Source: a virus
Virus record (IMG/VR): IMGVR_UViG_3300046710_000057
Location: 86,339 to 128,636 of that record
Reading direction: 5' to 3' (one strand)
Length of the DNA stretch: 42,298 nt
A program made the translations under genes and the position numbers. Positions 1,157 through 42,298 of the stretch are shown here, piece after piece. How positions within the stretch are numbered: position 1 is the stretch's first letter; the number at the start of each line of letters is the position of its first letter. Under the pieces are notes generated by a model. It worked only from the letters and a program-made list of their open reading frames with translations. It was not told the DNA's origin and did not search any database.

Positions 1157-4100
1157 TGGGAAAAATCCTATGGCCTGTGTCCGAACTAAACCCCAAGGTA
1201 AGTTTTGGAGGCGGCACTGGGAAAAAGGCATACACTCAAGCGTCGGCTTTTGGTGTCGGCCTTGCCCCAGCATTAGTGCGAGCGCGTGACGTTCCGCGAA
1301 ACATTGCGGCGACGGTCACACTTGCACCCACTCAGACACGAGTCAGGAAAGTTCCTCGAATAATAGCACTGGCGGTTAGTTTATCCTCGGCATTGACGCG
1401 GATTCGAGACGTGCCTAGATCAGCAGGATTAACTATTGGGTTGTCTTTCACAACAGTAAGACTTCGCGCTATATTGCGAGCATTGGTATTGACGATTGGA
1501 TTGTCGTCTATATTATCAAGAGTGCGCAACATTCCTCGATCTATTGCCGTTGGTGTTGGATTAGCACTGTCCAGAGGACGATTGTTCAAGGCAATCAGGA
1601 GTATTTCGGCTACTGTTGGGTTGTCGTCTGCATTAACGAGGATGCGTAGTGTTCCTCGGTCTGTTGCCGTCACTGTGTCGCTCGTAATTGCTACTCTACG
1701 AGCACGAAAGATTCCGCGTACTGCTGATGTCGCTTTGTCATTGACGACTGGATGTAGCAGATTAGCGACGATTATAAGGTCTGAGGCTATCGGTATATCA
1801 GTAGGAATTGTTAAATCTGCACAAACTACTATTCAACGAGCAATAGATTTGGCGATTACATTGGCTAACGATGTGTCTCGTCCTCTTGCGATTATCCGAA
1901 TTGCCCTTGTTGATATGGCAGTCGATGGAGCAATTGGTGTTCTGAATGGTTTTCGACGTGCCGTTAGTATTACGTTATCTGCCGCAGTCGCTATCGGTCA
2001 GTCCAGAGGTTATCTTAGGCAGATTGTGGCAACAGTCAATGCCAACCTTGCATCAAGCCGAATTGCTGCTTTTAGCAGACTGGCTACGGTTGGTCTAACA
2101 GTCAGTCACATTGCCGGTCGTATTCGGAGTATGGTTCGATCTGCTGCTACTACTGTCACGGCCACCATTTCAGCAAACCGACTGGTTGCTATCATTCGTA
2201 ACGTTGATATGCACTTCCACACGTTTATCAACGTTGACAGAATCGGCGAATACTACACATATCTGTCTACCGCACTGTCAGTTGCCGTCTCATCTAGTAG
2301 ACTGACGAAGATCATCCGAACACTTGCAGTGACGGTTGGTTCTTTGGTCGCAGGAACAAGAATTGCCACCTACCATTATGCTAAGTCTGTAGCTTTGACG
2401 CTTGCAACGAGCGTGAGTAGATTCCAGGGTTTCTTACGCAATCTGACTGTGGATTTGGGAGTTCTTGTAGAGAAAACCAGATTAGCCGCATTGCACCAGC
2501 TTATTGAGATCGGTCTAACACTAAGTAGCGGTGTGGGTAGGATTCGCAAGATTGTACGCATCGTCTTAGTTGGGATTGCACTGGCTGGGTCTGTGGTCAG
2601 AACTGCGGCATATTACCGACTGCATGGTATCGTCGTCACGTTGAGTACTGGCACGAGTAGACTGCGGAGTTCGCTTCGTAGTTTGACTGCTGATCTAGGC
2701 GTCCTTGTAGAACAAGCTCGATCTGCTACTTTTAGCCGACTTGCTTTGGCAGGTTTGACGATAAGCCATTCTATAGGTCGTGTTCGGAGAATCCTTCGAT
2801 CTATTGCTGTTGGGGTATCTACTGCCATTTCAGTAACAAGGTTGACTGAGATTATCAGGTCGATTTCAGTTGCTCTTTCAACTTCTTTGATCGTCACAAG
2901 GGCGAGAGACATACTCCGGTCTGTTGCTGTTGGAGTATCTGCTGCGATCACAAACAGTCGGCTGGTCAAAGTTGTTAGATTGATTGATACGCACTTCCAC
3001 ACGTTTATCAACGTTGATAGAATAGGTGAATATTACGAGTATGTCATCACCTCTCTATCGGCATTGGTTTCTGCCAGCAGACTGACCAAAATTGGACGTA
3101 CGATTACAGTAATAGTCAGTTCTATGGTTACAGCATCGAGGACGGTCACTTACCATTGCACAGAGTCGATTGCACTGAGTCTGGAACTGGGGATTACTCG
3201 TTTTCAGGGTTTCTTGCGCAATCTGATTGTAGATTTGGGAGTTCTTGTAGGACAAATCCGATCTGCTGCCTTCAAACGACTTGCTGAGGTAGGGCTGACA
3301 TTGAGCCAAGTTGTAGATCGTGCTCGAAAAGTCCTTCGATCTGTGGCAGAAGATATAACAGCCACTTTGTCGGTGAATCGGCTTTCTGGCATTCTTCGGA
3401 ATGTCGATCTACAACTTGGCTTGAATGCCATAGGAGAGGCGGCTGCTAAGGCAGTTGCTTTCATCACGGTTACGCTGACTATGGCTGTCAGTGCCAGTCG
3501 GATTGCCATTATTAAGCGAGCAGTAAGTGTGGGGATGTCATTTGCGGCAGTAGGCAACCGAATTACTAAGGTTGCTCGCTCGGTCAGCATTGCACTTTTG
3601 CTAGTGGTCAGTGTATCTCGGTTGCGAGCAGTCGTTCGTAGCATAATATCTGCACTAAGCCTTTCTGTTGCAGCGAATCGACTTGTGGTAGCCATACGGT
3701 CGATCAACGTGTCGATTACACTATCACAGTTGACGACCAATCTCCGTCGAGCGATTCGTACTGCGGCAGTTGCCATTGGCACTGCGGTAGAGGCCACTAG
3801 GATATTGACGGCTAACAGGATAGCCACTATTATGCTGTCTGTGATAGCTGGGGCTTCCAAGGTACGCAGTGTGCTCCGAAACCTGAGCATAGATGCGATT
3901 ATAGCCATACAGCCTTCAAGAATCGTCGAATATATCAGATCAATCAATTTGCAGTTGCAGTTGGCATCGGTAATTACAAAACTCGGCGAGTACATCACAT
4001 ACGCGATGGTCACCCTGTCCGCAGGAGTCCAGGCAGACAGACGAGTTGTTGCTTTGCGGTTGGTTGAGATCGGCGTATCTATTGGCAATGCGGTTGGTCG

Positions 4101-28323: not shown

Positions 28324-28631
28324 TTGCCAAGCGGCTTGACACTAATCCTTTGGACCCAAAGGTCAACAAACTCTATCACGACAAGTATGCTCGGTCTCTA
28401 GTCCTTATGGATTATCTCTACGATTCCTGGTTGGAGAAGAAGAGATTCGAGAGAGAGCAAGCGAGACTCGGTGGTAAACGAGTTGTTTCTTCATTCTCAG
28501 TTAATGAGGGTGACGACTTCGATGAGATGTTCGGTGGCGAAGAAAACGAACGCGATGACAATTTTGGTGTTTCAGACAACGCCAAAGAAATGGCGAAACG
28601 TTATGGCGTAGACGTAGGGGCTGATCTCTAA
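28275..28631 (+). CDS. tail assembly chaperone frameshift extension (G-T-like long form)
   Basis: The -1 frame reads FAKVVKRSERWRIQKIIAKRLDTNPLDPKVNKLY... and contains the listed 28350-28631 ORF, which lacks its own SD. Confidence 0.7.
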   Translation, partial: FAKVVKRSERWRIQKIIAKRLDTNPLDPKVNKLYHDKYARSLVLMDYLYDSWLEKKRFEREQARLGGKRVVSSFSVNEGDDFDEMFGGEENERDDNFGVSDNAKEMAKRYGVDVGADL

Positions 28632-31600
28632 TGTCGATGATGGACGATCTTACTTGGCGAATTGGTGTAATTCTTGATGCAAAACTCAAGAACATAGACT
28701 CAATTCGCCAAGAGTTTCAAGTAGCTGAAAAGGCTGCAACTAACCTGGAGGAACGAGTCAAGCAGGTTAGTGCCGCAGTTGACCGTCTGCACAGCCAAGG
28801 TTTTGGCGCTCAAAAGGGAATCAGCGAGGTCAGTTCAGCTATAGGCGTCCTCAAAAGCTACGGTGCTGAGATTCAGAACATTACGCAGCAACATAAAGTT
28901 GCCGAAGCATCCGCAAACCAACTCTTCAGCAAAATCACAGCAATGCAAAGTCGAGCAGGGAGTCTGACTGAGCGGCTTGCTGGCAAGCAAAACGAACAAC
29001 AGGTTGCTCTCGGAAACGCCAATGTCGCTAGAACACAAGGCGCATCTGCGGCTGTTATTGCTGGGTATCAAGTTGAAGCTGCTGCTGCTGGTCGATCTGC
29101 TGGCGGTCTTACGACGGCACTCAACAAACAAGAACAGCAGTTGGTTCGGTTGCGCCAAGAATATGCGCAAGTCGAAGGTCAAGTTGCTACATACAAAGAC
29201 CAAATGAAACAGGTCGAGAATGCAACAAAGACGATGAACTACGCTCCGTCTATTGTTACGTCGCCGCTCACCGGTTTGATAACAGACAATGAGAAAAAAA
29301 TCCCCATTCTCAGAAACCAGATGCGTAACATTGATGTAATCATAAAGAGATCACAAGCCAATGTTGCATCTGGCGCACTGAGTCAAGTCAATCCTGCTCT
29401 GTATGCCAGCAGAGCTAAAGCTGAAAACCAAATAGGTTTACTTCAGTTTGGCAAGAAATACAGTATGCCTGACCCTATGGCTCTTGTTCCTGCGAGCCAT
29501 CAAAATGCACCGTTCGGTCAGGATGTTGCTGCTGCTGCCACTCAAAGTCGTATGATCGACCAACAGATCGCTCAATTAAAGCGATTCGAGACACAGCAGA
29601 CTACTATCGGTATGCAGATGAGGCGTATTGGGAGTGACATTGGGTTCACAGCAATGCGGCTAAGTATGGTTACTGCTGGCATTGGAGCATTCTTCTACAC
29701 TGCTGCTACGCAAGCTGCCAACTTCGAGAAGAAAATGGCAGAAGTGAACTCCATCACGGACTATACGACGGAAGGATTCGCACAGGCCAAGACTGAAGTG
29801 ATGGACCTGTTTACGAACCTGCCTGTTAAGAACATTGACGACCTGACAAACGGCCTATACAACTTGATGTCGTCTGGCGTTAAAGCTGGCGACTCGATGA
29901 AGGTTCTTGAGTTGTCAGCGAAAGCCGCAATTGCTGGGCAGACAGACCTCGATACAGCATCTAAGGCTCTGATAGGAACGTTGAACGCCTTTGCTCTGCC
30001 GATGTCGGCAGCGAGCGATGTCCTCGATAAGCAATTCAAACTCGTCCAACTTGGCATTGGGCGTTACAAAGACTTCCAGCCAGTATTAGGCAAACTTGAA
30101 GTTACTGCCAAAGCAGCCGGTCAGTCTATTGCGACAACTTACGGCACTCTGGCTCAGTTGACTAGAATGGGATTTACACCACGTATGGGCGCGATGTCCG
30201 AACAGAGATTTATGGCTGATATGATCTCTAAGCGTGGCAAGATCAAAACTGAACTTGGTATTGATACTGTCGATGTCAACACCGGTAGGCCAAAAGAACT
30301 ATTGGTCTTCATGGCGGAATTGCAGAAGAGAGTCCAAGAGGGCAAAGTAAGTCTCGAAGGCATACAAAAAGCCCTTGGCAACATGAATAGCGTCAGATTC
30401 GTGCAAGCATTCTTGAGTCAGTTTGGTCAGTTCAAGGAACTCATCAACGAAACTGCAAACTCGGCAGGCGCTTGGGAGAGCGCATATAAGAAGGCCGTTG
30501 ATAATACGGCTGATCGTATACAGTTGTTAAAGAACCAATGGAATGCTGCAATGATTACTATAGGTGGTTCACCAGCAGTCAAGGCGGCAACTCTTGGTCT
30601 CATTACTGGTCTCAAGAGTGCTGTTGATTTCATGCGATCTGGCAACGGTGCGATTGCTAATTTTGCGGCGTCTATTCTTCTGATTACTGGTGGCTTTACA
30701 GGTTTAAGTGCGGCTGTGCTTACTGGGACTGCTGGCCTAGCACGATTCGTTGGTATGTTTGCTTCTGTTAAAGGTGCTGCTGCTACTCTTCAGATAGCCA
30801 AAATCGCATTTGGTCTCAGCAGTGTAGTCGGCGTTACAGATGTCGTGACAGGCAAAGTAATGGCAGCTAATGCAGGTCTGCAAGGTCTCGGACTGACTGC
30901 TGCTGGTACTGCTGGTGCTGTGAGTATGCTTAGAGTTGGCTTGGTAGCACTTGGCATAGCTTTGGTTGCATATGGCGTTAAGGCGTTCATTGACTATCTA
31001 ACGTCAGGCACGCGAGAAGCACTCAAACAGGCTGATGCTACAGCAGTATTGGCAGACAAGATACTCGCTCTCGGAGTAGTAACCGATAAATCTAGTGCGT
31101 CGTTCAAATCACAACAAGATGCAATGAACGATCTACGCAAGACGGTTCCTGAATTGGTTGCCCTCTATGACAGCGGAGCACTCTCTATGACAGAGTTTGG
31201 TCAGCGAGCAAAAGCTGCTGCTGCCGAAATGAAGCAACTTGCCAAAGAGAGACAATGGGGTGCTCCAGGTAGCAATGGAGATTGGAGAAACTCGATTGAA
31301 GGTTGGTGGAACCGAGGTATGTTGGGAGCACAAATGGAAGGGATTCCTGCTCCTGCGCCTGCTGAATTGCCAGAGACCGGCACAATATCGAAGGCAACTG
31401 CAAAGATTGGCATTCATGACACTCTGGTAGAGACCTACAAAGGGTTGAAGGATGCTGGAGATATACTCGGCAAAGCTCAAGACTCGTGGCAAAAAGCGTT
31501 AGAGAAGTCTGGCGGAAATACAAAAGCAGCCAAAGAATTGATGCAAAAAGAGGCTGACAAAGTACAGGACGAGATAAATGCTGTAAAAAACCGCATGATG

Positions 31601-34600
31601 ACTTATGATATGAGTCTTTATCCTTTCTATAAAGCTCCTCTGAAAAAAGAAGACACACAACAACTCAAGAATCTTCAGATTCAAAAGGCAGCCATAGAAA
31701 GCGGCGGTGGCATTAGTAAAGCAAACCTGACTGACATTATGACCCAGTATATTAGTCGTCAAGAAAACGACTTGACAGGGTTCTTTAAGGCTATGGGTAC
31801 GGATTACTCAACTATCCTACGTGACGTTATGGCTAATGTTGCCCCAGGCAAAGACATTCTTTCTGCTGCCGATTTGGTCGAGATCAAGAAGGCACTCATT
31901 GAGCGCCTGAAACAACTAGGAATGCCTGAACGAACCTTAAAGGCGCTTGCCAAAGACCTTGAGAAAGTCACCAAAGAAGAGCTTACGCGAACTGCCAACG
32001 CCAAGTCGCTTACGGCGATTATGGACACAATCACGAAAGAATGTGTCGATAATATTGCCAAAACTATTGCTGCGGCTGGCGAATTGGCTATTCAAGAGAT
32101 GCAAGGTAAGAACAAAGAGTTCTCGAAGGTTCTTGGCGAATCAGCGAAACAAGCCTCTGCTAAAGGTGGTACGATTTCTGATATAGTCGAATACGCTCAG
32201 GGTAGTAGTGTCAAGCCAGGAACCATTCCTCACAGAAGCGACGCTTGGATGCGTCAAGAAGCTAAGAAGACCGTTAATGCTGGTCTTACAAAAGAGAATC
32301 CTAGCATCATGGCCGGTGATATTGTTATCAATCTGAACACTGGAGCAAATGGGATTCGCCAATTGAACGGCAATATATTGACCAACAATGGTGAGACGAC
32401 CCTACAAGATTTGCTTGGAATGACTAAGGAAGGTGGATACAATCCTTACACGACTGTTCAGGGTGGTTTGAATGAAGGCACGTTCCTCCAAAAAGGTTAC
32501 GCTGGTATGGCACAAGCTATGCCTGAGAAGGACATAGAAGCTAGAAATATGAAAGCCACAGCGTATCTTAACACCATGCGCCAAATCAGGAAGGAATCCA
32601 GACAAGCTGAACTTGAAAGTCAAATGGCTGAAATGCGCAATGTTCCCTTCGGTGCGAACTATGATGCACGAAAGCAAGAGGCCGATTACCAGGCTCAAAG
32701 ACTTCAAATCAAAATGTCGCATGATATGGATGTCCAAGCTCGAAAGGAACAATTGGAGGACCAAAGGGTATCAGGCAAACTAGACGATGCGCAAATGGCT
32801 AAACTGAAGGCCGAAGCATCGAAGACCGAAATTGCAAAAGAAGCAGCAACCTATCAAGAATTGGAAACTCTCGCACGCGAACATGCTCGGACAATGATCA
32901 ATCTTGCGATGGACGAAGCTATGGCACGCGAGCAATACTTCAATGGACTTCAACAGACTCAGTTGAAGGCGGCTCAGGAGTATACCAACCTAACTGCAAG
33001 AACACAGGTCGAACAGGTTCAAGCTATTCGGCAGGGATACGAGGCTGAGCTTGGCGCTCTCAAAGTTGGTCTCAAACAACAATTGGTTGAGCGTGAGAAG
33101 ATGTACCAAGGCGGTAAGATTTCTCCGCAAGAGTACAAAGACGCCGGTAAGGGAATCCTCGATTCTTACAACAAGCAGATGGTCAACCTCTTCCTCAATA
33201 CAGAGAAGACTATTCGTGAGAAGATGGCTAACATCTACCAAGGGCAGAGCCAGTCTTATCTCGATGCAATGAGGGCTGTTCAGGCTTATAACCAGAAGGT
33301 AGCTGAGGTTTCAGGGGCCGGTGTCCAAACTCGTATTCAGTTGGCTCGTCAGGAAGGGGCTATCAAGATTGCTGCGTTGGACGAAGAACATAAGCACTTC
33401 CTTCAGACTGCTGATGATATGGGTAAGACCGATCAGGAACGAACAAACGAGTTCATCAAGTATGCTGCTGAAAGAAAGGCCGCTGCTCTGGATGCTATTC
33501 AAGCTGAAAGAGAACTCGCGCTCGGTGATTGGCAAAAACAAGCAGAGGCTTACAACGCCGCTCGAAAGTCAATGGCCGAAGCTCGTGCTTCAGTTCGTGA
33601 AGGTATGGGCGATTCTCCTGCTGCCGCTATGAGAAGCAAGTCGATGCAGGGTGCTCAAGGCGCTATGGGCGGATTGTACAATAGTAAAGCTGCCGGTGTC
33701 CAAGATGATCTACAACAGCGAATTGAAGACATCAGAATGGAACAAGAAGCCTGGAAAGCCAACGCTGCTGTTCATGGAACTACTGCCGCAGAAATGTCAG
33801 CGATGGACCAAAAGTTTGCCGCAGATCGCGTAAAAGCATTTGCTGATGCTGCTAAGTCTATGCGAGAATTAGCTGTCAATGAACTTGACGCATACGCTTC
33901 ATTCGTCCAAGATATTGGTGGCGCAAGTGCTTCTTCGATGTATGATATGGCAAAGCAGATGGACCCTATCCTCGAACAGATGGGCGTCTCTGCAATGGAC
34001 CGCGCAAAGCGTCTCAGTGGTGCTCTGAAGGAAGCTGTGGCATCAGATAAGTCAACCATCACTGGTATGATGGATATGCTTGATCTGCCGAAGGAAAAGA
34101 TTGTTCAGATACGACAGAATATGATTGACCACGGCTTCTTCTTTGGAGAGGAACAAAAACAGGCTGAGATGGAGAACATGAAGGACATGTTCGATCTCGC
34201 AGTTGGTTCTCAAAAGAGAATTGCTGAAGCTGGTGCGAATGCTATCGGCGAAGCATTCAAAGGACTCATCAAAGGCAACTTGAGTTTCGGCGAAGCCCTA
34301 CAGAAGATTTGGCAGGGATTCACTGATGCAGCCATTGACGAGTTTACCAATATCTACATCAAACAGCCTATGCGTGAAGCAATGCGGACACCACAAGAGA
34401 AGGCTATGGAAGCACAACTCATGCAGCTTTCAAGCAAGCCTTACGATCAAGAACGCAAAAACCTCATGGGAATGGTTGATGCAAAAGGTGGGTTCAAGGG
34501 TGCAGCAGACATTCAGATGCAAGCGGCTGTATTGTTCTCTCAATCTGTTGCTATGATGAATGCACTTAAAGCTCCGGTTCCGCCTGGGGCATTCAACCCA

Positions 34601-37600
34601 ACAGGACTGCCAACGATGCAATATGACCAGTGGGGCAACGTTATTCCGCCAAACGTTACTGTCCCTGGTCGGCCCACTGCTGCTCAGTATCCTCCGCAAC
34701 TGTCTACATTGCCAGAGGTTCCTGGCGGCGTTAAGGGGCTTGGTGTAATTCCGGCTGGTTACGCTATGGGTAAGACGATGTTTGGTGGAACTTCTTCTCG
34801 TGCCGCTAACTTGCCACCGTTGAATTGTGGTGCATATGCCGCTCAGAATATGCACGATCTTTATGGATGGGCAGGGCAGTCAACACGAGATTTGAGGAAT
34901 CCTAAACTTGCAACAAGGATTCAAAGTCCTTCAATCGAAGATATTCAACCTGGAATGATAGCTCACTGGCCCCCTGGAAGCAATCATGCGGCAGGACATT
35001 ATGCAGGAATCATGCGAGGTCCAGACGGCAAACTGTACTACAATGAGCAGTACAACCAGCGAGGGGATGCTGTCGCTAACGTCAGGAAGAATAGACCGGT
35101 CACTAGCGATATGCCTAATGAGGTCTACAGTCTTAGAGGCGTCAATCTCGGTAGAGATTGGATGCAGGGTCAAGGACCGGTCACTGGCGCACCGGCACTT
35201 GCTGGCGTTCAAGAGATTCCTAAGCATCTTCAGCTTAGCAATGTGCCTTATGACAAGTACATCATGGACGCAGCGAAGAAGTATAATCTCGACCCTAACC
35301 TGATTCGTGCTGTAGTGAAACAAGAGAGTCACTTTGACCCCAACGTAACCAGTTCTGCTGGCGCTGGAGGACTTATGCAGCTTATGCCTGGGACATTCAA
35401 GGGACTCGAAGGTCCAGGCCATGATGTGTTTGACCCCAAAACCAATATTGACGCTGGTTCCAAATATTTGGCCGAACTACAGAAGAAATATAACGGAGAC
35501 CTCGACAAAATGCTGGCTGGCTACAATGGTGGCCCTCGCGCTGTAAAAGCACTTGAAGCAGGTAGGACATGGCCTGGAGTCCAAAAGTACATAGATGAAG
35601 TTGAAGGGAAGAAAGCTGGCTTCGCGGCGATGGAAGACAAGGCCAAATCTAAGATCAAAGCTAAGCTGCCAACGGTTCAAAAGACGCCTGAAGAATTGCT
35701 GCAAGAACAAATGAAAGGTGAAGGCATCGGCAAAGCTGCCACACCTGACGTTACTGGTCTTGCTGATGCGTTCTTCCAGTCAATGACACAAGCTCTTCAA
35801 GATGCTAACTTGCCGACCAAAGATCAACTTGAGAATGCGATTGAGATTCTCCAGGGTATTCGAGAGAATATCACTGATATGGCTGACAAGACAACTGGCA
35901 TTTCTGAAGCAGACCGTAAGGCAGCTTGGGAAGGTCGTCATCCATTAACTGAACCGGCAAGACCTGATATGCAGCAAGCTCTTGGAACCGATACACTTGG
36001 GCAGTATGGAGCACTTCCTGCTGGCTGGACACGAGATCGAAATGGCATCATGGTTCCACCAGCAACGGCAGGACCGGCTGCGCCTTTCTTGACAGAACCT
36101 TTGCAAGCAGGTCCGCTTCAAGGTCCGATGTTGCCAACTACACCATCACAGTTGTTCCCTTCTTGGCTTACGTCGCCGACACAGCCTCAAGATATGTTGT
36201 TCCCTCCTTGGGGAGCCATGCAGCCGCCACAACAACAAGGTCCAATGCAGGCTGGACAAGTTACTGTTCAGACTGGACAAACTACCGTTGAGGGTCAGGT
36301 TGTAAACGAACCTGCTAAGCCGCAGGAACCTGGAATAGCTGGCGTTCCTGCCCCTGGTCAGCAGAGTATAGAAGCAACGGCGGCAGCACCTCAACAGATA
36401 ACTGCTACTGCCACTCAGCAGACAGCCGTTAATACCGCAGCAATGGCTCAGATGATGAGTCTGAACCCAGGTATACCTGGCGCTCAAGGTATACTTCCTG
36501 GTATGGGTATGGGCGGTCAGCCTTGTGGTGGATACGGCCAACCTCCTTGTCCTAGTGGTTACGGCCTGTCACAAGGTATGCCACAACAGGGAAATCCATA
36601 CCTTTCTGGTGGTGGACCTTTAGACGACAATGCTCAGAGTCTTCCATCGCAACTGACTGATCAAATGGGTAACGGTGGTTTTGGTAAAGGCAAGCAGGGC
36701 TTCGGCAAGAAGGGCGATGGTCAAGATAGTCTTGGTAAAATCAATGCTGCTGCTGGCAAATATGATGCTGCCGGTACTGGCATCAAGTCTGCCTGTGGGA
36801 GTCTAACCGGCGCTTGCTCGAAACTGAACAGTTCTGTCGGTGCTACTGGTTACAAAGTAGGTGGTGGTGCAGGTCAGCCTTGTGGTGGATTTGGACAGCC
36901 GCCTTGTCCTCCTGGCGTCGGTGGTGGTGCAGGCGGTTATGCTGGCTGGACACGAGATAGAAGCGGCAATATGATTCCACCAGAGAGACCACTGCTTCAG
37001 GAACCTGCTGGACCTTGGACTCCTGGTTTCAAATCAAACTTTACTGGGCCATTAAGCGTACAGCCGGAAATGCTTCCAGGTTTGATGAAGAAATACGAAG
37101 AATGGCAAAGAAAGATGTTCCCAGGATTTGAAGCACCTCCTGGGCCTGGGGCTGGTTTAGCAGTTCCATTGCAAGAATATCCGCTTGGACCTGATGCAAA
37201 CGCTGCCAGAAATGACAGAATCTATCAGACTCCTTGGGGCATGGCGACTCCAAATGAACTTGAAGGCAAGAACCCACTTGGTCAACCTATCCAGGCTCAA
37301 CAGGTTACAGTTCAAGCTGGACAAGCCACTGTTCAAGGTCCGGTTCAACAACAACCTACGCCTCAAGAACAGCAGCCGCCTGTTCCTGTGTCTCCTACTC
37401 AACAGGGTATAGGTGCTGCTGTAACTCCTGAACAACAGGCAGCAACGTTACAACAGATCGGCGAATCGCCGTCTCAGCAAGCGACTGCTGCTGCGACTCA
37501 ACAAACGGCCATCAATACAGGGGCAATGGCTCAGAATATAAGTATGATGGGCGGTCTTCCTGGTGCTCAGGGTATGGGCATGATGCCTGGTATGGGCGTT

Positions 37601-40351
37601 GGTGGAATCCCTCCGTACCAGCAACAACAAGTCAATCCTTATTTGACGAATAATTACGGCGGAGTCGGTTGTGGTGGATACGGTCAACCTCCGTGTCCTG
37701 GCGGCTATGGTATCTCGCAGGGGATGCCACAACAGGGTGTAGGCGGTTACAATGGCACTGGTAACCCATATCTCTCTGGCGGTAGTCCTGGGTACGATAA
37801 CGCTCAGAGTTTACCTGAACAATTGAATAGTCAAATGAATCAAGGTGGGAACTTTGGCAAGGGTAAAGGTGACGGAAACTTTGGCAAGAAGGGTCAAGGC
37901 AATGCGAGTCTCGGTAAGATTGATTCCAGTGCTGGCGGTCTTAACAAATCGTGTGGGAGTCTGAATACTTCTTGTGCTGGATTGAACTCAGCTTGTGGCA
38001 ATATCAATTCCGCTTGTGCAAAACTCAATAGTTCTGTAGGTTCTGCTGGTTACGGTACAGGTCTCGGATTTGGCGGTCAACCTACTGGCGGCACTCCTGG
38101 CACTCCTGGTTTCGGTCAGCCATACGGCGGAAGCTACGAAGCTGGTCCTGGTCCAGTAGCACAAAGTTTCGATGGTGGATTCAACGATATTTATGGCAAC
38201 TCTTGGATTGGGAATGCTGGTGATTATAACATTCCTGGTCCTCCTGCACAACAATTCGGTGGCGGATTCAATGATATATATGGTAACTCTTGGATGGGAA
38301 CACCTAGTGCTTATGGATACAGTGGCGGTGCTGCTGGTTATGGTCCTGGTACAATTGGTGGTCTCGCTGGTGGTTGTGGTGGTGGCGGAAAGGGTCTTAA
38401 TGATCTTGCTGGTGGTCAAGGTGGTTTTGGCAAGAAGGGCGGCGGACAAGGTTTTGGTAAGAAGGGACAAGGAAATGCCAGTCTCGGAAAGATTGACTCA
38501 TCGGCTGGTGGTTTGAACTCTTCGTGTGCCGGTTTGAATGCAGCTTGTGGTAATCTGAATAGTGCTTGTGCGAAACTGAACGCTTCGCCTGGATTAACAG
38601 GTCAGAATCAAGGATTGTTTGGTGCTCAACCTGGTACTCCTGGTTTCGGTCAACCATATGGCGGCAGTTATGAAGCTGGTCCTGGTCCGGTTGCACAAAA
38701 CTATGGTGGTGGATTCAACGATATTTATGGCAACTCTTGGGTCGGCACTGCCGGAGATTATGGAATACCTGGTACTCCAGCGCAAGGTTTTGGTAGTGGT
38801 AATCTAGTTGGATTCAACGATGTCAACGGCGACTCGTGGATGGGAACTCCTGGCTCTTATGGCTACAATGGCAACTATGGTACTGGTTACGGTCCAGGTG
38901 CGATAGGCGGACTTGCTGGTGGCTGTGGTGGCGGTGGAAAGGGTCTTAACGATCTTGCGAGCCAAGGTGGATTCGGCAAAAAGGGCGGACAACAAGGCTT
39001 TGGCAAGAAGGGTCAGGGTAGTGCAAGTCTTGGGAAGATAGATTCATCTTGTGGTGGGTTGAATGCGTCCAGTACTGGTCTGAATGCTGCTTGTGGAAGT
39101 TTGAACACTGCTGCTCAGAATCTTTCGGCTGCTTCTGCTGGAATGGGGGCTGGAGGAGGTAGACCTGGAGCACTTGGGCAACAGTTTGAAGGTGGATTCA
39201 ACGATGTCAATGGTAATTCATGGGTAGGGACTCCTGGTGATTATCCTGGTCCAGTTGCACAACAATTCAATGGAGGATTCAACGATACTTCTGGCAATTC
39301 TTGGGTAGGAACTCCTGGTGATTACGGATATACTTCAGGTGGATACCAGCCTTACGGTATGCCTGGTTACTTTGGTGGAAGTGCTGGCGGTCTTGGTGGC
39401 TGTGCTGGCCTTGGTGGTATTGGCAAAGGTGGAGCAGGAGGATTTGGCAAGAAGGGTGGTCAAGGCGGCATGGACGCCGTAAAAGGCGGCGGCGGTGGTG
39501 GATTCGGTAAGAAGGGCGGTGCTGGTGCTCAAGGTGGTATGGGAGCCGTTGTTGGACCTCCTGGTCACGATTTCGCTATGGGCGGCAGTCCTGCTGGTGG
39601 CGCTGGTGCTGCTGGGGCCGGTAACTTTGGTAAGAAGGGTGGAGCCGGAAATATGGGCCTCGCTGGTGGTATGGGCGTAGACCCTGGCGCTATGCAATCT
39701 GCTCAACGTGCAGCAGGTAGTTTTGGTGGAGGTGGTGGTGCTGCTTCTGCTATGACTGCTGCTGCTGGTGGTGGTGGATTCGGTAAAGGTGGTGGCGGAG
39801 GAGCTAAAGGTGGTGGCGGTGCTGGCGGTGCTGGTGGCGGTGGTATGGGTAGCCTGATGTATGGCGTCGGCGCATTCGGTCAAGGTATGCAAGAAGGATT
39901 TACTGCTCCAAGTGCCATTGGAACCTTAATGACAGGTATGATGATGGGCGGACCTATGGGAGCCGGTCTTGGACTTCTGTTCCTTGGTCTCGGTGCGATG
40001 TTTGGTAAGGGAAAGAAGAAGAAACAAGAAGCTCCTAAGTGGGAACTCGACAAGAAGGGCGAGTTTGGTATGATCAAAGAGCCGGAAGACGTTATGTGGG
40101 CAACCAAGAAGTATGTCCGCAGAGCTTCTGAGGGTGGTCGTGAAGGTCTGCCTTACAACCTCGGTCGAACTCCTACTTGGTGGGAACAGGCTGGCGTTAT
40201 CAAGACGCAAAGTAACATTCAGTTTGCTCGAATTGAGATCGTCGGAGTCTCTGACCCAAGAGAGGCCGGTAGAGAGTTTGTTGCCGGTATGACTGAAGCT
40301 CCTTCCGCAGTCCTTGCGGCAGGACTCAACAATGGGAGTAGTGTAAGATAA
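28631..40351 (+). CDS. tape measure protein with TP901-type core, CHAP-like and SLT muralytic domains, and a long Gly/Gln/Pro/Cys repeat region
   Basis: AANFEKKMAEVNSI...GLYNLMSSG (~29714-30560), hydrophobic segments and long coiled coils. Also NCGAYA...GHYA...NEQY (~34820-35140) and IRAVVKQES...AGGLMQLMPGT...YNG (~35250-35600). Confidence 0.92.
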   Translation: MSMMDDLTWRIGVILDAKLKNIDSIRQEFQVAEKAATNLEERVKQVSAAVDRLHSQGFGAQKGISEVSSAIGVLKSYGAEIQNITQQHKVAEASANQLFSKITAMQSRAGSLTERLAGKQNEQQVALGNANVARTQGASAAVIAGYQVEAAAAGRSAGGLTTALNKQEQQLVRLRQEYAQVEGQVATYKDQMKQVENATKTMNYAPSIVTSPLTGLITDNEKKIPILRNQMRNIDVIIKRSQANVASGALSQVNPALYASRAKAENQIGLLQFGKKYSMPDPMALVPASHQNAPFGQDVAAAATQSRMIDQQIAQLKRFETQQTTIGMQMRRIGSDIGFTAMRLSMVTAGIGAFFYTAATQAANFEKKMAEVNSITDYTTEGFAQAKTEVMDLFTNLPVKNIDDLTNGLYNLMSSGVKAGDSMKVLELSAKAAIAGQTDLDTASKALIGTLNAFALPMSAASDVLDKQFKLVQLGIGRYKDFQPVLGKLEVTAKAAGQSIATTYGTLAQLTRMGFTPRMGAMSEQRFMADMISKRGKIKTELGIDTVDVNTGRPKELLVFMAELQKRVQEGKVSLEGIQKALGNMNSVRFVQAFLSQFGQFKELINETANSAGAWESAYKKAVDNTADRIQLLKNQWNAAMITIGGSPAVKAATLGLITGLKSAVDFMRSGNGAIANFAASILLITGGFTGLSAAVLTGTAGLARFVGMFASVKGAAATLQIAKIAFGLSSVVGVTDVVTGKVMAANAGLQGLGLTAAGTAGAVSMLRVGLVALGIALVAYGVKAFIDYLTSGTREALKQADATAVLADKILALGVVTDKSSASFKSQQDAMNDLRKTVPELVALYDSGALSMTEFGQRAKAAAAEMKQLAKERQWGAPGSNGDWRNSIEGWWNRGMLGAQMEGIPAPAPAELPETGTISKATAKIGIHDTLVETYKGLKDAGDILGKAQDSWQKALEKSGGNTKAAKELMQKEADKVQDEINAVKNRMMTYDMSLYPFYKAPLKKEDTQQLKNLQIQKAAIESGGGISKANLTDIMTQYISRQENDLTGFFKAMGTDYSTILRDVMANVAPGKDILSAADLVEIKKALIERLKQLGMPERTLKALAKDLEKVTKEELTRTANAKSLTAIMDTITKECVDNIAKTIAAAGELAIQEMQGKNKEFSKVLGESAKQASAKGGTISDIVEYAQGSSVKPGTIPHRSDAWMRQEAKKTVNAGLTKENPSIMAGDIVINLNTGANGIRQLNGNILTNNGETTLQDLLGMTKEGGYNPYTTVQGGLNEGTFLQKGYAGMAQAMPEKDIEARNMKATAYLNTMRQIRKESRQAELESQMAEMRNVPFGANYDARKQEADYQAQRLQIKMSHDMDVQARKEQLEDQRVSGKLDDAQMAKLKAEASKTEIAKEAATYQELETLAREHARTMINLAMDEAMAREQYFNGLQQTQLKAAQEYTNLTARTQVEQVQAIRQGYEAELGALKVGLKQQLVEREKMYQGGKISPQEYKDAGKGILDSYNKQMVNLFLNTEKTIREKMANIYQGQSQSYLDAMRAVQAYNQKVAEVSGAGVQTRIQLARQEGAIKIAALDEEHKHFLQTADDMGKTDQERTNEFIKYAAERKAAALDAIQAERELALGDWQKQAEAYNAARKSMAEARASVREGMGDSPAAAMRSKSMQGAQGAMGGLYNSKAAGVQDDLQQRIEDIRMEQEAWKANAAVHGTTAAEMSAMDQKFAADRVKAFADAAKSMRELAVNELDAYASFVQDIGGASASSMYDMAKQMDPILEQMGVSAMDRAKRLSGALKEAVASDKSTITGMMDMLDLPKEKIVQIRQNMIDHGFFFGEEQKQAEMENMKDMFDLAVGSQKRIAEAGANAIGEAFKGLIKGNLSFGEALQKIWQGFTDAAIDEFTNIYIKQPMREAMRTPQEKAMEAQLMQLSSKPYDQERKNLMGMVDAKGGFKGAADIQMQAAVLFSQSVAMMNALKAPVPPGAFNPTGLPTMQYDQWGNVIPPNVTVPGRPTAAQYPPQLSTLPEVPGGVKGLGVIPAGYAMGKTMFGGTSSRAANLPPLNCGAYAAQNMHDLYGWAGQSTRDLRNPKLATRIQSPSIEDIQPGMIAHWPPGSNHAAGHYAGIMRGPDGKLYYNEQYNQRGDAVANVRKNRPVTSDMPNEVYSLRGVNLGRDWMQGQGPVTGAPALAGVQEIPKHLQLSNVPYDKYIMDAAKKYNLDPNLIRAVVKQESHFDPNVTSSAGAGGLMQLMPGTFKGLEGPGHDVFDPKTNIDAGSKYLAELQKKYNGDLDKMLAGYNGGPRAVKALEAGRTWPGVQKYIDEVEGKKAGFAAMEDKAKSKIKAKLPTVQKTPEELLQEQMKGEGIGKAATPDVTGLADAFFQSMTQALQDANLPTKDQLENAIEILQGIRENITDMADKTTGISEADRKAAWEGRHPLTEPARPDMQQALGTDTLGQYGALPAGWTRDRNGIMVPPATAGPAAPFLTEPLQAGPLQGPMLPTTPSQLFPSWLTSPTQPQDMLFPPWGAMQPPQQQGPMQAGQVTVQTGQTTVEGQVVNEPAKPQEPGIAGVPAPGQQSIEATAAAPQQITATATQQTAVNTAAMAQMMSLNPGIPGAQGILPGMGMGGQPCGGYGQPPCPSGYGLSQGMPQQGNPYLSGGGPLDDNAQSLPSQLTDQMGNGGFGKGKQGFGKKGDGQDSLGKINAAAGKYDAAGTGIKSACGSLTGACSKLNSSVGATGYKVGGGAGQPCGGFGQPPCPPGVGGGAGGYAGWTRDRSGNMIPPERPLLQEPAGPWTPGFKSNFTGPLSVQPEMLPGLMKKYEEWQRKMFPGFEAPPGPGAGLAVPLQEYPLGPDANAARNDRIYQTPWGMATPNELEGKNPLGQPIQAQQVTVQAGQATVQGPVQQQPTPQEQQPPVPVSPTQQGIGAAVTPEQQAATLQQIGESPSQQATAAATQQTAINTGAMAQNISMMGGLPGAQGMGMMPGMGVGGIPPYQQQQVNPYLTNNYGGVGCGGYGQPPCPGGYGISQGMPQQGVGGYNGTGNPYLSGGSPGYDNAQSLPEQLNSQMNQGGNFGKGKGDGNFGKKGQGNASLGKIDSSAGGLNKSCGSLNTSCAGLNSACGNINSACAKLNSSVGSAGYGTGLGFGGQPTGGTPGTPGFGQPYGGSYEAGPGPVAQSFDGGFNDIYGNSWIGNAGDYNIPGPPAQQFGGGFNDIYGNSWMGTPSAYGYSGGAAGYGPGTIGGLAGGCGGGGKGLNDLAGGQGGFGKKGGGQGFGKKGQGNASLGKIDSSAGGLNSSCAGLNAACGNLNSACAKLNASPGLTGQNQGLFGAQPGTPGFGQPYGGSYEAGPGPVAQNYGGGFNDIYGNSWVGTAGDYGIPGTPAQGFGSGNLVGFNDVNGDSWMGTPGSYGYNGNYGTGYGPGAIGGLAGGCGGGGKGLNDLASQGGFGKKGGQQGFGKKGQGSASLGKIDSSCGGLNASSTGLNAACGSLNTAAQNLSAASAGMGAGGGRPGALGQQFEGGFNDVNGNSWVGTPGDYPGPVAQQFNGGFNDTSGNSWVGTPGDYGYTSGGYQPYGMPGYFGGSAGGLGGCAGLGGIGKGGAGGFGKKGGQGGMDAVKGGGGGGFGKKGGAGAQGGMGAVVGPPGHDFAMGGSPAGGAGAAGAGNFGKKGGAGNMGLAGGMGVDPGAMQSAQRAAGSFGGGGGAASAMTAAAGGGGFGKGGGGGAKGGGGAGGAGGGGMGSLMYGVGAFGQGMQEGFTAPSAIGTLMTGMMMGGPMGAGLGLLFLGLGAMFGKGKKKKQEAPKWELDKKGEFGMIKEPEDVMWATKKYVRRASEGGREGLPYNLGRTPTWWEQAGVIKTQSNIQFARIEIVGVSDPREAGREFVAGMTEAPSAVLAAGLNNGSSVR
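36020..39870 (+). repeat. nested coding repeats in the TMP C-terminal region
   Basis: Unit A starts at 36020 and 36941 (GCTGGCTGGACACGAGAT). The unit B segments at 38101 and 38635 are offset by 534 nt. Recurrent FGKKG, CGGxGQPPCP, GFNDxxG(N/D)SWxG and Cys heptads. Confidence 0.9.
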
Positions 40352-40548
40352 TGCCAGCAAACAAGAACGTGACTGTAGGCGAGATAATTGACGAACAAAA
40401 CCGTCAGAATCCTAAGAAGCCGGTTAAGGTTGCGAGCACGCCAGAAGTGCGAATAATTGTTGGCAGGGTAGTTTCGCCAAGATACATCTTGGATGCTTCT
40501 ATAGCCGAAATCGAGCGTGGTCTAAACTGCGTACGGAGCGTGAGGTAA
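40351..40548 (+). CDS. small hypothetical protein
   Basis: Coupled by TAATG overlaps to both the TMP gene and the next gene. Confidence 0.55.
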   Translation: MPANKNVTVGEIIDEQNRQNPKKPVKVASTPEVRIIVGRVVSPRYILDASIAEIERGLNCVRSVR

Positions 40549-41216
40549 TGGCAAGAGTAAACTGGAAGTTTAGTTCAATAGTATACTACGACGATGATGC
40601 TGTGCAGAAAATGCTTGACAATAACCCTGTCGAGTTTTACCTTCTGGATGGCAAACCTCAGTTCGAGGAGTATAAACTAAATGGGCTAGTAACAAAGATC
40701 GTCTTCCGAAAGAAGGCAGGCGACCCTAGACTCGTGCTTCAGCACAAGTTCCAACTGACTTATCCGAAGCTCGACAAGGAAGCATTGGACGTTCTGTTAC
40801 AGTATTCGCGCTACTGGAACCAGAAGATTTACTTGAAGTTGTGGCAGTTCGATGCGAAATATGACTCTGGGTTGGCTGATGAGACTGGAGCGTTCCTGTG
40901 CTGGCCCAAGGGTGATAACACGTATCTGGAGTACTTTACTCCATTCCGTAACCTTGCAAGTGACGAGAGTGCTCGAACTAAGGTTTGGGTTGATTCTACC
41001 GGAACTGGATTTGAGGAAGTAGAGACTGGATTCACTATCGACTACATAGACGGCAAAGTAACATTCGACACTACTTTGACGGCTACAGATGTTGTGAAGA
41101 TGCACTTTGTATGGAATCCAAGAGTTGTGATCTTGGACCTCGACCCCAAACCACAAGCAGGACAAGGGTATGGGGTTCCTAAGTTCACTCCGATCATTGT
41201 GATGCAGGAGGTCTAA
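40548..41216 (+). CDS. distal tail (Dit)/DUF2460-like protein
   Basis: Position after the TMP. F.LTYP.L...LL.Y and FTIDY.DGKVTF...DVV motifs. Confidence 0.6.
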   Translation: MARVNWKFSSIVYYDDDAVQKMLDNNPVEFYLLDGKPQFEEYKLNGLVTKIVFRKKAGDPRLVLQHKFQLTYPKLDKEALDVLLQYSRYWNQKIYLKLWQFDAKYDSGLADETGAFLCWPKGDNTYLEYFTPFRNLASDESARTKVWVDSTGTGFEEVETGFTIDYIDGKVTFDTTLTATDVVKMHFVWNPRVVILDLDPKPQAGQGYGVPKFTPIIVMQEV

Positions 41217-41221
41217 TCAAG

Positions 41222-42298
41222 ATGCCGTATATAGCACCACCAGGACGAAGGTTGGCATACAACCGAGACGGAACAGAAGTGTGGATTTGGGACTACAACG
41301 ACTTCGTGTACAACAAAGCTCAACTCATCCAAAAAGAGCTTGACATCATCAACAACGAAGACCTTGATACCCATAGTTTCACGACGGCCATCAACTATCA
41401 CTATTATCAGTGTGTCGGATTCCTGTTTCCTGTTCCTATGGACATAACGCACTTCTTCTTTTCTGCATCTTGGGCTGGAGGCGCTGAAGCACAATATCCT
41501 ACTACTCTGACTGCTGTTCAGTATAGTACGGATACCACCAATGGAGACGACGGCACTTGGTACGATGTTGTCGGTCTTGAAGTTTCTTTGCCATACACGT
41601 TGCCGACTCACCCTATGACATTATGGCGAAGCGGCATTCATATCTCTGGAGGAATTGCAGCAACAGGCATACGTTTTGTAGTGCATAATACGACCGCCAC
41701 AGTCTACTACAAGGCCATTCATCTTTACGGAATGGTTCACGTTGATACTACTCAGCGTTTGGCGTTCTGTGGAGTTGATGGTGCAGCCGAACTGACCGCA
41801 GACAAAGATTTTGGGAATCAACAGCGTGACGGCACGACAGGCGACGAGGAAAAGTACAATCTTTCGATCAAGAATATGCACGAAACTTTAACCGCCAAAG
41901 ATGTATTCCTCAAAGTGGCAACAAAGAGTTGCATCACTTGTATGGGAGATTTGTACAATCAACTGTCTGATTGGCGCTTCATAACAGGTGGTGAAAAGAA
42001 CTTTTTGAGGACCAGTTCGGAAGCTGCCTCTCGTTATTTGTACTGGGGATTGACGGTCGCTGGGGATGTCAGAACGGTCACTGTCTATCGTTATCCTATA
42101 TTCTCAAACGACTACAAACTAGCTAGTGGTTCTCGAACTGGTCCTGGTGAGATCGTGCTTGACCAGTATCTCTTTTCAGGTCTTACAGGCACAGTCTATA
42201 TCAGCAGCGTCACACCGTATGCCGATAATACCGACACGACGGCCAACATCCTTTATCAGATGTTGGACCAGGAAGCATGTAACTGGTTTGATCTGCGC
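41222..42298 (+). CDS. 3'-truncated tail protein (not in the ORF track)
   Basis: SD CAGGAGGT before ATG 41222. I translated it without a stop to the window end (MPYIAPPGRRLAYNRDG...YSTDTTNGDDGTW...), including a discoidin-like S.DTTNG.DGTW motif. Confidence 0.75.
   Translation, partial: MPYIAPPGRRLAYNRDGTEVWIWDYNDFVYNKAQLIQKELDIINNEDLDTHSFTTAINYHYYQCVGFLFPVPMDITHFFFSASWAGGAEAQYPTTLTAVQYSTDTTNGDDGTWYDVVGLEVSLPYTLPTHPMTLWRSGIHISGGIAATGIRFVVHNTTATVYYKAIHLYGMVHVDTTQRLAFCGVDGAAELTADKDFGNQQRDGTTGDEEKYNLSIKNMHETLTAKDVFLKVATKSCITCMGDLYNQLSDWRFITGGEKNFLRTSSEAASRYLYWGLTVAGDVRTVTVYRYPIFSNDYKLASGSRTGPGEIVLDQYLFSGLTGTVYISSVTPYADNTDTTANILYQMLDQEACNWFDLR

Follow-up and report, generated by a model that had tools for sequence, protein, structure and literature searches.

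We analyzed a 42,298-nucleotide stretch of phage DNA (the window), which is the last 42.3 kb of IMG/VR record IMGVR_UViG_3300046710_000057. The record is 128,636 bp long, is rated complete by CheckV, and represents an uncultivated peat-soil phage assembled from a metagenome as one contig. The window carries the gene for the tape measure protein (TMP) of the tail, a single unbroken open reading frame (ORF) encoding 3,906 amino acids (407 kDa). A preliminary description of this DNA had pointed to a repeat region of about 1,300 residues, rich in glycine, glutamine, and proline, within the TMP, and window positions 36020 to 39870 do encode TMP residues 2464 to 3747 in frame within that single ORF. 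The main parts of the gene are as follows.

28631 to 40351, plus strand: TMP gene, residues 1 to 3906
28631 to 34474, plus strand: ruler part, common to relatives, residues 1 to 1948 (delimited by BLASTP segments)
34475 to 39553, plus strand: lineage-specific block, residues about 1949 to 3641 (about 1,690 residues, 170 kDa)
35258 to 35560, plus strand: SLT lytic transglycosylase domain, residues 2210 to 2310 (Pfam PF01464, E value of 7e-29)
39947 to 40003, plus strand: hydrophobic, glycine-zipper-like segment, a candidate for membrane insertion, residues 3773 to 3791, followed by FGKGKKKK
40004 to 40348, plus strand: conserved C-terminal domain, residues 3792 to 3906 (54% identical to the C terminus of a relative)

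By homology and gene order, the product of this gene is a bona fide phage tail TMP. PHROG families 1533, 28, and 36688, among others, match residues 1 to 1900 (E values of 1e-25 to 1e-8), and tblastn with the protein found annotated TMPs of Vibrio, Clostridium, Flavobacterium, and other phages at 22 to 27% identity. The ruler part has hydrophobic segments at residues 680 to 790, and the SLT domain also matches lytic transglycosylases in the PDB as well as the solved TMP 9b45. Upstream of the gene lie terminase, portal, protease, capsid, adaptor, tube, and chaperone-sized genes (the tube and chaperone genes are named by synteny, without a family match); the putative tail-tip genes follow on its other side. 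No sheath-sized gene is present, and we therefore infer a siphovirus-type tail.

The repeat region, which is present in a single copy in the genome, was resolved by tiled self-BLAST and MAFFT alignment into two kinds of unit and a degenerate tail. The preliminary description had counted two units of about 307 residues and about 2.5 units of about 180 residues. Both kinds were recovered, as A1 and A2 and as the nested units B1 to B3 of 160 to 190 residues.

36020 to 36940, plus strand: repeat unit A1, residues 2464 to 2770 (307 residues)
36941 to 38110, plus strand: repeat unit A2, residues 2771 to about 3160, its end overlapping B1
37823 to 38395, plus strand: repeat unit B1, residues 3065 to 3255, nested in the end of A2
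38396 to 38944, plus strand: repeat unit B2, residues 3256 to 3438, 76% identical to B1 (ratio of nonsynonymous to synonymous substitution rates [dN/dS], 0.19)
38945 to 39430, plus strand: repeat unit B3, residues 3439 to 3600, 62 to 65% identical to B1 and B2 (dN/dS, 0.22 to 0.29)
39431 to 39880, plus strand: degenerate glycine-rich tail, residues 3601 to 3750, about 41% glycine, with three FGKKG motifs and one FGKG motif

Units A1 and A2 are 56% identical over 296 codons (dN/dS, 0.31). Every copy contains a core module in which a glycine-rich stretch with two FGK(K)G motifs is followed by SLGKI, by heptads with Cys or Leu at the a and d positions, and then by a GFGQP-type stretch. In the A units, this core is joined by an arm rich in Pro and Gln (AGWTRDR...PWG...QVTVQ...TQQTA.NT.AMAQ...CGGYGQPPCP...NPYLSGG), and in the B units by two mini-motifs of the form GGFND..GNSW..G(D)Y. 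The count of nine FGKKG motifs plus FGKG variants given earlier was exact: FGKKG begins at residues 2691, 3084, 3266, 3275, 3448, 3457, 3605, 3625, and 3666, and FGKG begins at residues 2684, 3075, 3717, and 3791, the last of these just past the end of the region. Three DNA strings quoted in the preliminary description lie at positions 37907, 38480, and 39026; all are in frame and all encode SLGKIDS.

The copies had been said to keep their amino acids while varying at third codon positions, which suggested purifying selection rather than recent slippage, and our comparisons between copies bear this out. By the Nei-Gojobori method, dN/dS was 0.19 to 0.31 with a dS of 1.1 to 1.4, values that are not near 1 for the ratio but that are approximate, with alignments picked by protein similarity and dS near saturation. 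Identity between copies was 0.68 to 0.79 at first codon positions, 0.73 to 0.84 at second positions, and 0.47 to 0.54 at third positions. At conserved fourfold-degenerate codons, third-position identity was 0.48 to 0.53, compared with the 0.38 to 0.41 expected from codon usage if these positions were fully randomized. In the alignment of B units, 80% of the glycine columns are invariant, and the F, W, L, K, and D columns are largely invariant too. From the dN/dS ratios and the near-saturated synonymous sites, we conclude that the region, as judged by its codons, is coding sequence retained by purifying selection.

A slippage-type tandem repeat is ruled out by the 60 to 86% DNA identity among copies and by Tandem Repeats Finder, which reported just two trivial 21-nucleotide, two-copy arrays. 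Because the copies differ to this extent and share no long exact repeat, collapse of the repeats during assembly also appears unlikely. The record is a single metagenome-assembled contig, in which a repeat could be chimeric or misjoined, but the ORF is unbroken across 11.7 kb, copies at this level of DNA identity would neither collapse nor misjoin, the codon preferences of the repeat region match those of the remainder of the gene, and both flanks are colinear with orthologues. We regard an assembly artifact as extremely improbable.

We looked for the same gene in related phages. A search with the capsid protein identified three IMG/VR relatives at about 70% identity. One of these is a complete 113-kb record (L012), in which a search with the C-terminal third of the TMP found a 1,986-residue ORF whose last 250 residues match. 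The flanking tail genes of the two phages correspond, with the tube gene product 55% identical and the 222-residue protein encoded after the TMP 56% identical; since the flanking genes are conserved at this level and segments of the TMPs align, the 1,986-residue ORF is the positional orthologue of the TMP. A C-terminal alignment scan added two more members, one of 1,954 residues and one partial.

L012, 2530 to 8490, minus strand: TMP of 1,986 residues
L014, 185 to 6049, plus strand: TMP of 1,954 residues
L013, 2 to 3073, plus strand: partial TMP, 1,023 residues present

The TMPs of the three relatives are 70 to 75% identical to each other. Residues 314 to 870 of the 3,906-residue TMP align with residues 211 to 760 of the L012 protein at 39% identity (35 to 39% for this N-terminal core across the relatives), residues 1312 to 1948 align with residues 1095 to 1628 at about 25% identity (the middle of the ruler), and residues 3642 to 3906 align with residues 1748 to 1986 at 37% identity, rising to 54% over the last 117 residues. 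Between the last two segments lies the lineage-specific block, with the SLT domain and the A and B repeats all inside it. The SLT domain and the A and B repeats are absent from all three related TMPs, each of which has in this place a linker of about 120 residues rich in Ala, Gly, Ser, and Thr. Each also has no FGKKG motif, a single FGKG motif, and only one or two cysteines. The relatives thus share with our phage the N-terminal core, the ruler, the C-terminal module (37 to 54% identity), and the gene neighborhood, but differ in lacking the block, and the TMP studied here is twice as long as its orthologues (3,906 versus 1,954 and 1,986 residues).

Downstream of the block, the whole family conserves a glycine-rich stretch of about 140 residues, the hydrophobic segment, an invariant FGKGK, and a C-terminal domain of about 110 residues. 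The FGKGK directly after the hydrophobic segment (window positions 39998 to 40020) is invariant in all four TMPs of the family. The glycine-rich tail of the repeat region, from about residue 3642 onward, aligns with the glycine-rich region that precedes the hydrophobic segment in the relatives. Since the repeat copies (56 to 76% identical) are at least as similar to each other as are the orthologous tail proteins (55 to 70%), the duplications are about as old as the split between the lineages, or younger. The motif sequences hint that the repeated FGK(K)G derives from an ancestral FGKGK junction.

The motif searches of viral databases suggested by the preliminary description found no relatives of the repeats. 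No relative of the repeat region was found by tblastn and megablast among 50,697 phage records, a word-indexed search of 5.8 billion clusters with the region, the C terminus, and the N-terminal part returned the protein itself alone, and peptide-pattern scans of IMG/VR with the region, the N-terminal part of the TMP, and the B-unit alignment found no relative. Scans of IMG/VR with back-translated FGKKG-x4-SLGKI, GGFND-x2-GNSW, and CGGYGQPPCP motifs were equally empty. The ESM Atlas gave no usable match for the repeat region, Pfam gave nothing meaningful for single units at E values up to 10, and the PDB sequences held no match to the region. A few candidates were rejected. Two matches to FGKKG-x4-SLGKI came from JGI metagenomes; one (L002) proved a chance occurrence, with the motif in a context that is not glycine rich once translated, and the other (L003) lies in none of the listed ORFs. 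One match to CGGYGQPPCP in GTDB genomes is out of frame in an unrelated gene, and phmmer against 1.84 billion representative sequences gave four matches, all generic "LNxSxGx" heptad-repeat proteins aligned over the heptad block only. One of these, the 2,716-residue metagenomic protein P0002, has dozens of heptads of the TNTKLDTINTSVG type alternating with units of about 70 residues, as well as a large globular end, and looks like a giant fiber protein; it was matched through the heptad block alone. The claim that the region is not recognizable in described TMPs holds for its sequence. However, lambda gpH is known to have a glycine-rich region close to its C-terminal end (PMC12617516), and TMPs often contain polyG tracts (PMC13585406).

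The region consists of 26% Gly, 10% Ala, 9% Pro, 8% Gln, and 5% Asn. Charged residues make up 8.5% of it, versus 22.7% of the remainder of the TMP, with a net charge of about +1, and 30 of its 45 lysines fall in FGK, GKG, or LGKI motifs. Cysteine is about 20 times as frequent in the region as elsewhere in the protein, with 20 of the 22 cysteines of the TMP located in the repeats. These 20 are accounted for by a C-x7-C loop, CGG[YF]GQPPCP, that occurs three times (36527 to 36553, 36884 to 36910, and 37673 to 37699), by the heptad cysteines, and by three lone cysteines (two in GGLAGGCGG and one in the variant GGLGGCAG). The heptads form four blocks.

36731 to 36835, plus strand: Cys-heptad block 1, residues 2701 to 2735, a/d register anchored on SLGKI
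37910 to 38038, plus strand: Cys-heptad block 2, residues 3094 to 3136, six heptads
38483 to 38587, plus strand: Cys-heptad block 3, residues 3285 to 3319
39029 to 39133, plus strand: Cys-heptad block 4, residues 3467 to 3501, Cys partly lost

Each block has four to six heptads with Cys or Leu at the a and d positions; in block 2, the a positions read L, A, C, C, C, C and the d positions read I, L, L, L, I, L, with Asn after d. A helix was predicted in the one block that was folded with AlphaFold2. The blocks have the features of a coiled coil, with hydrophobic a/d periodicity over at least four heptads and, in the block modeled, a predicted helix. For unit B1, modeled with its paralogous copies as a four-row alignment, the mean predicted local distance difference test score (pLDDT) was 40, with 160 of 191 residues below 50, and for unit A2, modeled with a two-row alignment, it was 37.5, with 311 of 340 residues below 50; alignments of two to four rows are far too shallow for such low scores to prove disorder. 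Within B1, a 46-residue helix was predicted over SLGKI and the Cys heptads (unit residues 26 to 71; pLDDT of 50 to 57), along with short hairpins at the paired GFND..GNSW motifs, and in A2 a hairpin at AGWTRDR (pLDDT of 75) and one A2-specific helix stood out.

These models qualify the proposal that the region is a disordered polymer: most of it is predicted to be disordered, albeit from very shallow alignments, but regular heptad helices and hairpins are present as well. The further analogy to FG-nucleoporin or prion-like sticker-spacer domains is not supported. The coefficient of variation of the gaps between aromatic residues was 1.14 to 1.39, versus 0.87 to 0.95 in 2,000 shuffles, with 95 to 100% of the shuffles more even, and the region contains aromatic-free stretches of 55 to 127 residues. 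This clustering argues against a sticker-spacer arrangement and favors a mosaic in which glycine-rich linkers connect short motifs.

The C terminus of a TMP sits in the tail tip, and the TMP is expelled ahead of the DNA. By this established biology, the repeat region, as part of the TMP, would be ejected, as the preliminary description had proposed. We infer by analogy that the conserved C-terminal domain may be the tip-bound end, as are lambda gpHC and T5 pb2C. The reading that we favor, to which we give slightly less than an even chance, is that the region is a lineage-specific accessory module of the TMP for ejection or penetration, a flexible tether corresponding to a hugely expanded gpH-type glycine-rich C-proximal region. 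In TMPs such as lambda gpH, a short glycine-rich stretch precedes the hydrophobic segment and the tip-bound C terminus; we read the region, again by analogy, as this stretch enlarged roughly 25-fold. Since the relatives do without it, it would be an accessory aid to penetration and not a core part of tail assembly, and it is probably tuned to a particular host envelope.

Under this reading, the approximately 124 kDa of repeat region per chain would be mostly unfolded in the distal tail lumen of the virion. During infection, the first parts to leave and engage the membrane would be the C-terminal plug and the hydrophobic segment, and the glycine-rich chains, thin and flexible enough for the open tip, would thread out next, giving an exit order (by analogy) of C-terminal domain, hydrophobic segment, 1,290 residues of repeats, SLT domain, and helical ruler. 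The heptad blocks might zip three (or six) TMP chains into register, and the layers of cysteine may lock by oxidation once outside the cytoplasm. In this way, a long tether or lining would form that gives the ejected TMP a greater reach and carries the SLT domain to the cell wall. A more specific version, which we consider quite improbable, is that the insert is a disordered polymer, rich in glycine, in which the conserved heptads with Cys at the a position and the C-x7-C loops stay reduced in the virion and snap into disulfide-locked trimeric junctions in the oxidizing envelope, producing a covalent trans-envelope tether or mesh, a new ejected protein material. If this were true, the phage could traverse a host envelope of unusual thickness or width that the relatives lacking the insert cannot.

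Several points weigh against the tether reading. The oligomeric state, disulfide formation, and order of ejection are all drawn by analogy. The predicted disorder comes from AlphaFold2 with alignments of two to four sequences. Selection is measurable between paralogous copies only, the repeats having no orthologue. The hydrophobic segment has the highest 19-residue hydropathy of the C-terminal third (1.45), a borderline value for a transmembrane helix.

We weighed three other explanations. The repeats could extend the length-measuring part of the protein, giving a tail longer than that of the relatives, with their motifs serving chaperone and tube interactions in assembly and not infection. 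That TMP length sets tail length is established (PMC13585406, PMC3271669), part of the variation in TMP length comes from repeats and polyG tracts (PMC13585406), and the present TMP has double the length of its orthologues. However, the region, unlike the ruler part, is not predicted to be helical and has one third of its charge density, and it lies distal to the SLT domain, an enzyme that could not serve as a rigid ruler. At 1.21 cubic angstroms per Da, 124 kDa occupies about 150 cubic nm per chain, so that three fully packed chains would take up no more than about 36 nm along a 4-nm lumen, versus about 190 nm if helical. We consider a ruler extension unlikely.

We also doubt that the region is a glycine-rich linker that grew by duplication and was tolerated, constrained only to remain soluble, unstructured, and free of stop codons, with no specific role. 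This would fit its absence from three related phages with otherwise syntenic tail modules, the high frequency of low-complexity and polyG regions in TMPs (PMC13585406), and the lack of homologues in the databases searched, but it sits poorly with the selection measured between copies at near-saturated synonymous sites, with the conservation in register of non-glycine motif positions (F, K, W, L, D, and the Cys heptads), and with the enrichment of cysteine; 3.9 kb of DNA is, in addition, costly in a packaged genome. The mechanisms proposed in the preliminary description seem very unlikely to us, whether a sticker-spacer domain of FG-nucleoporin or prion-like type that condenses into a gel or conduit once ejected or a polyprotein that is cleaved into peptides at KKG; none of our results favors gel formation or cleavage at KKG. 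The aromatics are clustered and not evenly spaced, the region contains discrete helical and hairpin elements, glycine dominates and not glutamine or asparagine (26% versus 8% and 5%), and we found no evidence of a protease or of cleavage. On the other side stand a composition rich in Gly, Gln, Pro, Asn, and Tyr with low charge and mostly predicted disorder, the prion-like domains reported in phage attachment and penetration proteins (PMC5694896), and the cleavage of lambda gpH in its glycine-rich region (PMC12617516).

Some observations concern the rest of the TMP and its neighbors. PF10145 (PhageMin_Tail) was found in the TMPs of both complete relatives (E values of 4e-21 and 6e-21) and was not reported for the 3,906-residue TMP at an E value of 0.1, though the corresponding region shares 39% identity; bias or length correction in a long low-complexity query probably explains this. 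The TMPs of the relatives have a Cys...His stretch within the ruler (GMCARG ... GDIVVTRKKG..GGYHIGVMD, residues about 941 to 1030), of which the longer TMP retains, at about residue 1229, just the remnant GDIVINLNTGANG, without the His. A different Cys...His stretch, NCGAY ... GHYAGIM, lies within its inserted block (residues 2066 to 2140). By eye, both resemble papain-type (NlpC/CHAP-like) signatures, without support from any tool. We rejected residues about 2066 to 2140 as a CHAP/NlpC-like peptidase, with no support from Pfam or other tools and a resemblance to the stretch of the relatives at the level of motif only. Downstream of the TMP gene, the ORFs at 40548 to 41216 (222 residues) and 41222 to 42298 (at least 359 residues) had no PHROG match at an E value of 0.01, nor did the large ORFs at the start of the contig (L007, 9 to 6847; 155, 478, and 1,643 residues). 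These are presumably tail-tip and fiber proteins of an unsampled lineage.

The usual picture of a TMP is a helical ruler that carries no more than a small enzyme domain and a short junction rich in glycine, and muralytic domains embedded in TMPs have already been described. Within the literature that we searched, a TMP junction of about 1,290 residues made of composite, selected repeats with Cys-heptad nodes, which doubles the TMP relative to its orthologues, is not described. The region is a clean example of a long low-complexity phage sequence under purifying selection without detectable relatives. It also provides a natural pair, in which related phages with otherwise matching tail genes have orthologous TMPs of about 1,950 and 3,906 residues that differ by one block, the SLT domain plus 1,290 residues of selected, mostly nonhelical repeats. 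Two questions become testable with this pair: whether nonhelical TMP segments count toward tail length, and what role the glycine-rich C-proximal region of a TMP plays during ejection. The example comes from one uncultivated metagenomic phage, and the function proposed for it is read from sequence.

The closest layout among known systems is that of lambda gpH, in which a region rich in glycine close to the C terminus is cut in maturation and residues 818 to 849 bind gpI in the tip (PMC12617516). We inspected the gpH C terminus and found a glycine-rich region, a hydrophobic stretch, and then a C terminus of about 110 residues, as here. Both proteins thus run from a helical TMP through a glycine-rich and hydrophobic stretch to a C-terminal piece of about 110 to 130 residues that, in gpH, ends in the tail tip. 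The glycine-rich stretch of gpH is flexible, unresolved in structures, and the site of maturation cleavage, but it spans about 50 to 100 residues without internal repeats, unlike the approximately 1,290 residues of nested, selected repeats and Cys heptads here. Lambda virions also lack an enzyme like the SLT domain that lies ahead of the region in our phage. No homology of the region to the gpH-type stretch was detected by searches of phage GenBank records (tblastn), PDB sequences, or 1.84 billion representatives.

T5 pb2 also has a C-proximal hydrophobic segment, muralytic activity, and a C-terminal piece in the baseplate hub and is expelled on infection. Its C-terminal fragment leaves first, followed by insertion of the hydrophobic segment of pb2* into the outer membrane; while in the tube, the protein is kept in a metastable state, and it may have to refold upon infection (PMC10038345). 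It differs in having no long glycine-rich repeat and in the position of its metallopeptidase, which lies C-terminal to the hydrophobic segment, while the SLT domain here lies about 1,460 residues N-terminal to it. The polyX tracts and tandem repeats known from TMPs (PMC13585406, PMC3271669) resemble the region in that glycine-rich low complexity and internal duplication change TMP length. Those tracts lie in the helical ruler and consist of homorepeats or of short periodic units, whereas the region has composite units of 160 to 390 residues that are 56 to 76% identical, are under selection, and lie outside the helical part.

A more distant comparison is offered by the BE-cluster phages of Streptomyces, whose capsid protein is 35% identical; the TMP of one of them, LukeCage (2,102 residues), has about 200 residues of glycine-rich sequence ahead of its enzyme domains. 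The accessory motifs of mycobacteriophage TMPs (e.g., that of TM4) are small and recognizable, being of the peptidoglycan hydrolase or Rpf-like kind, in contrast to a long disordered repeat. As lineage-specific insertions that a TMP can do without, they aid infection under particular host conditions, and the accessory penetration module that we propose here would follow the same logic.

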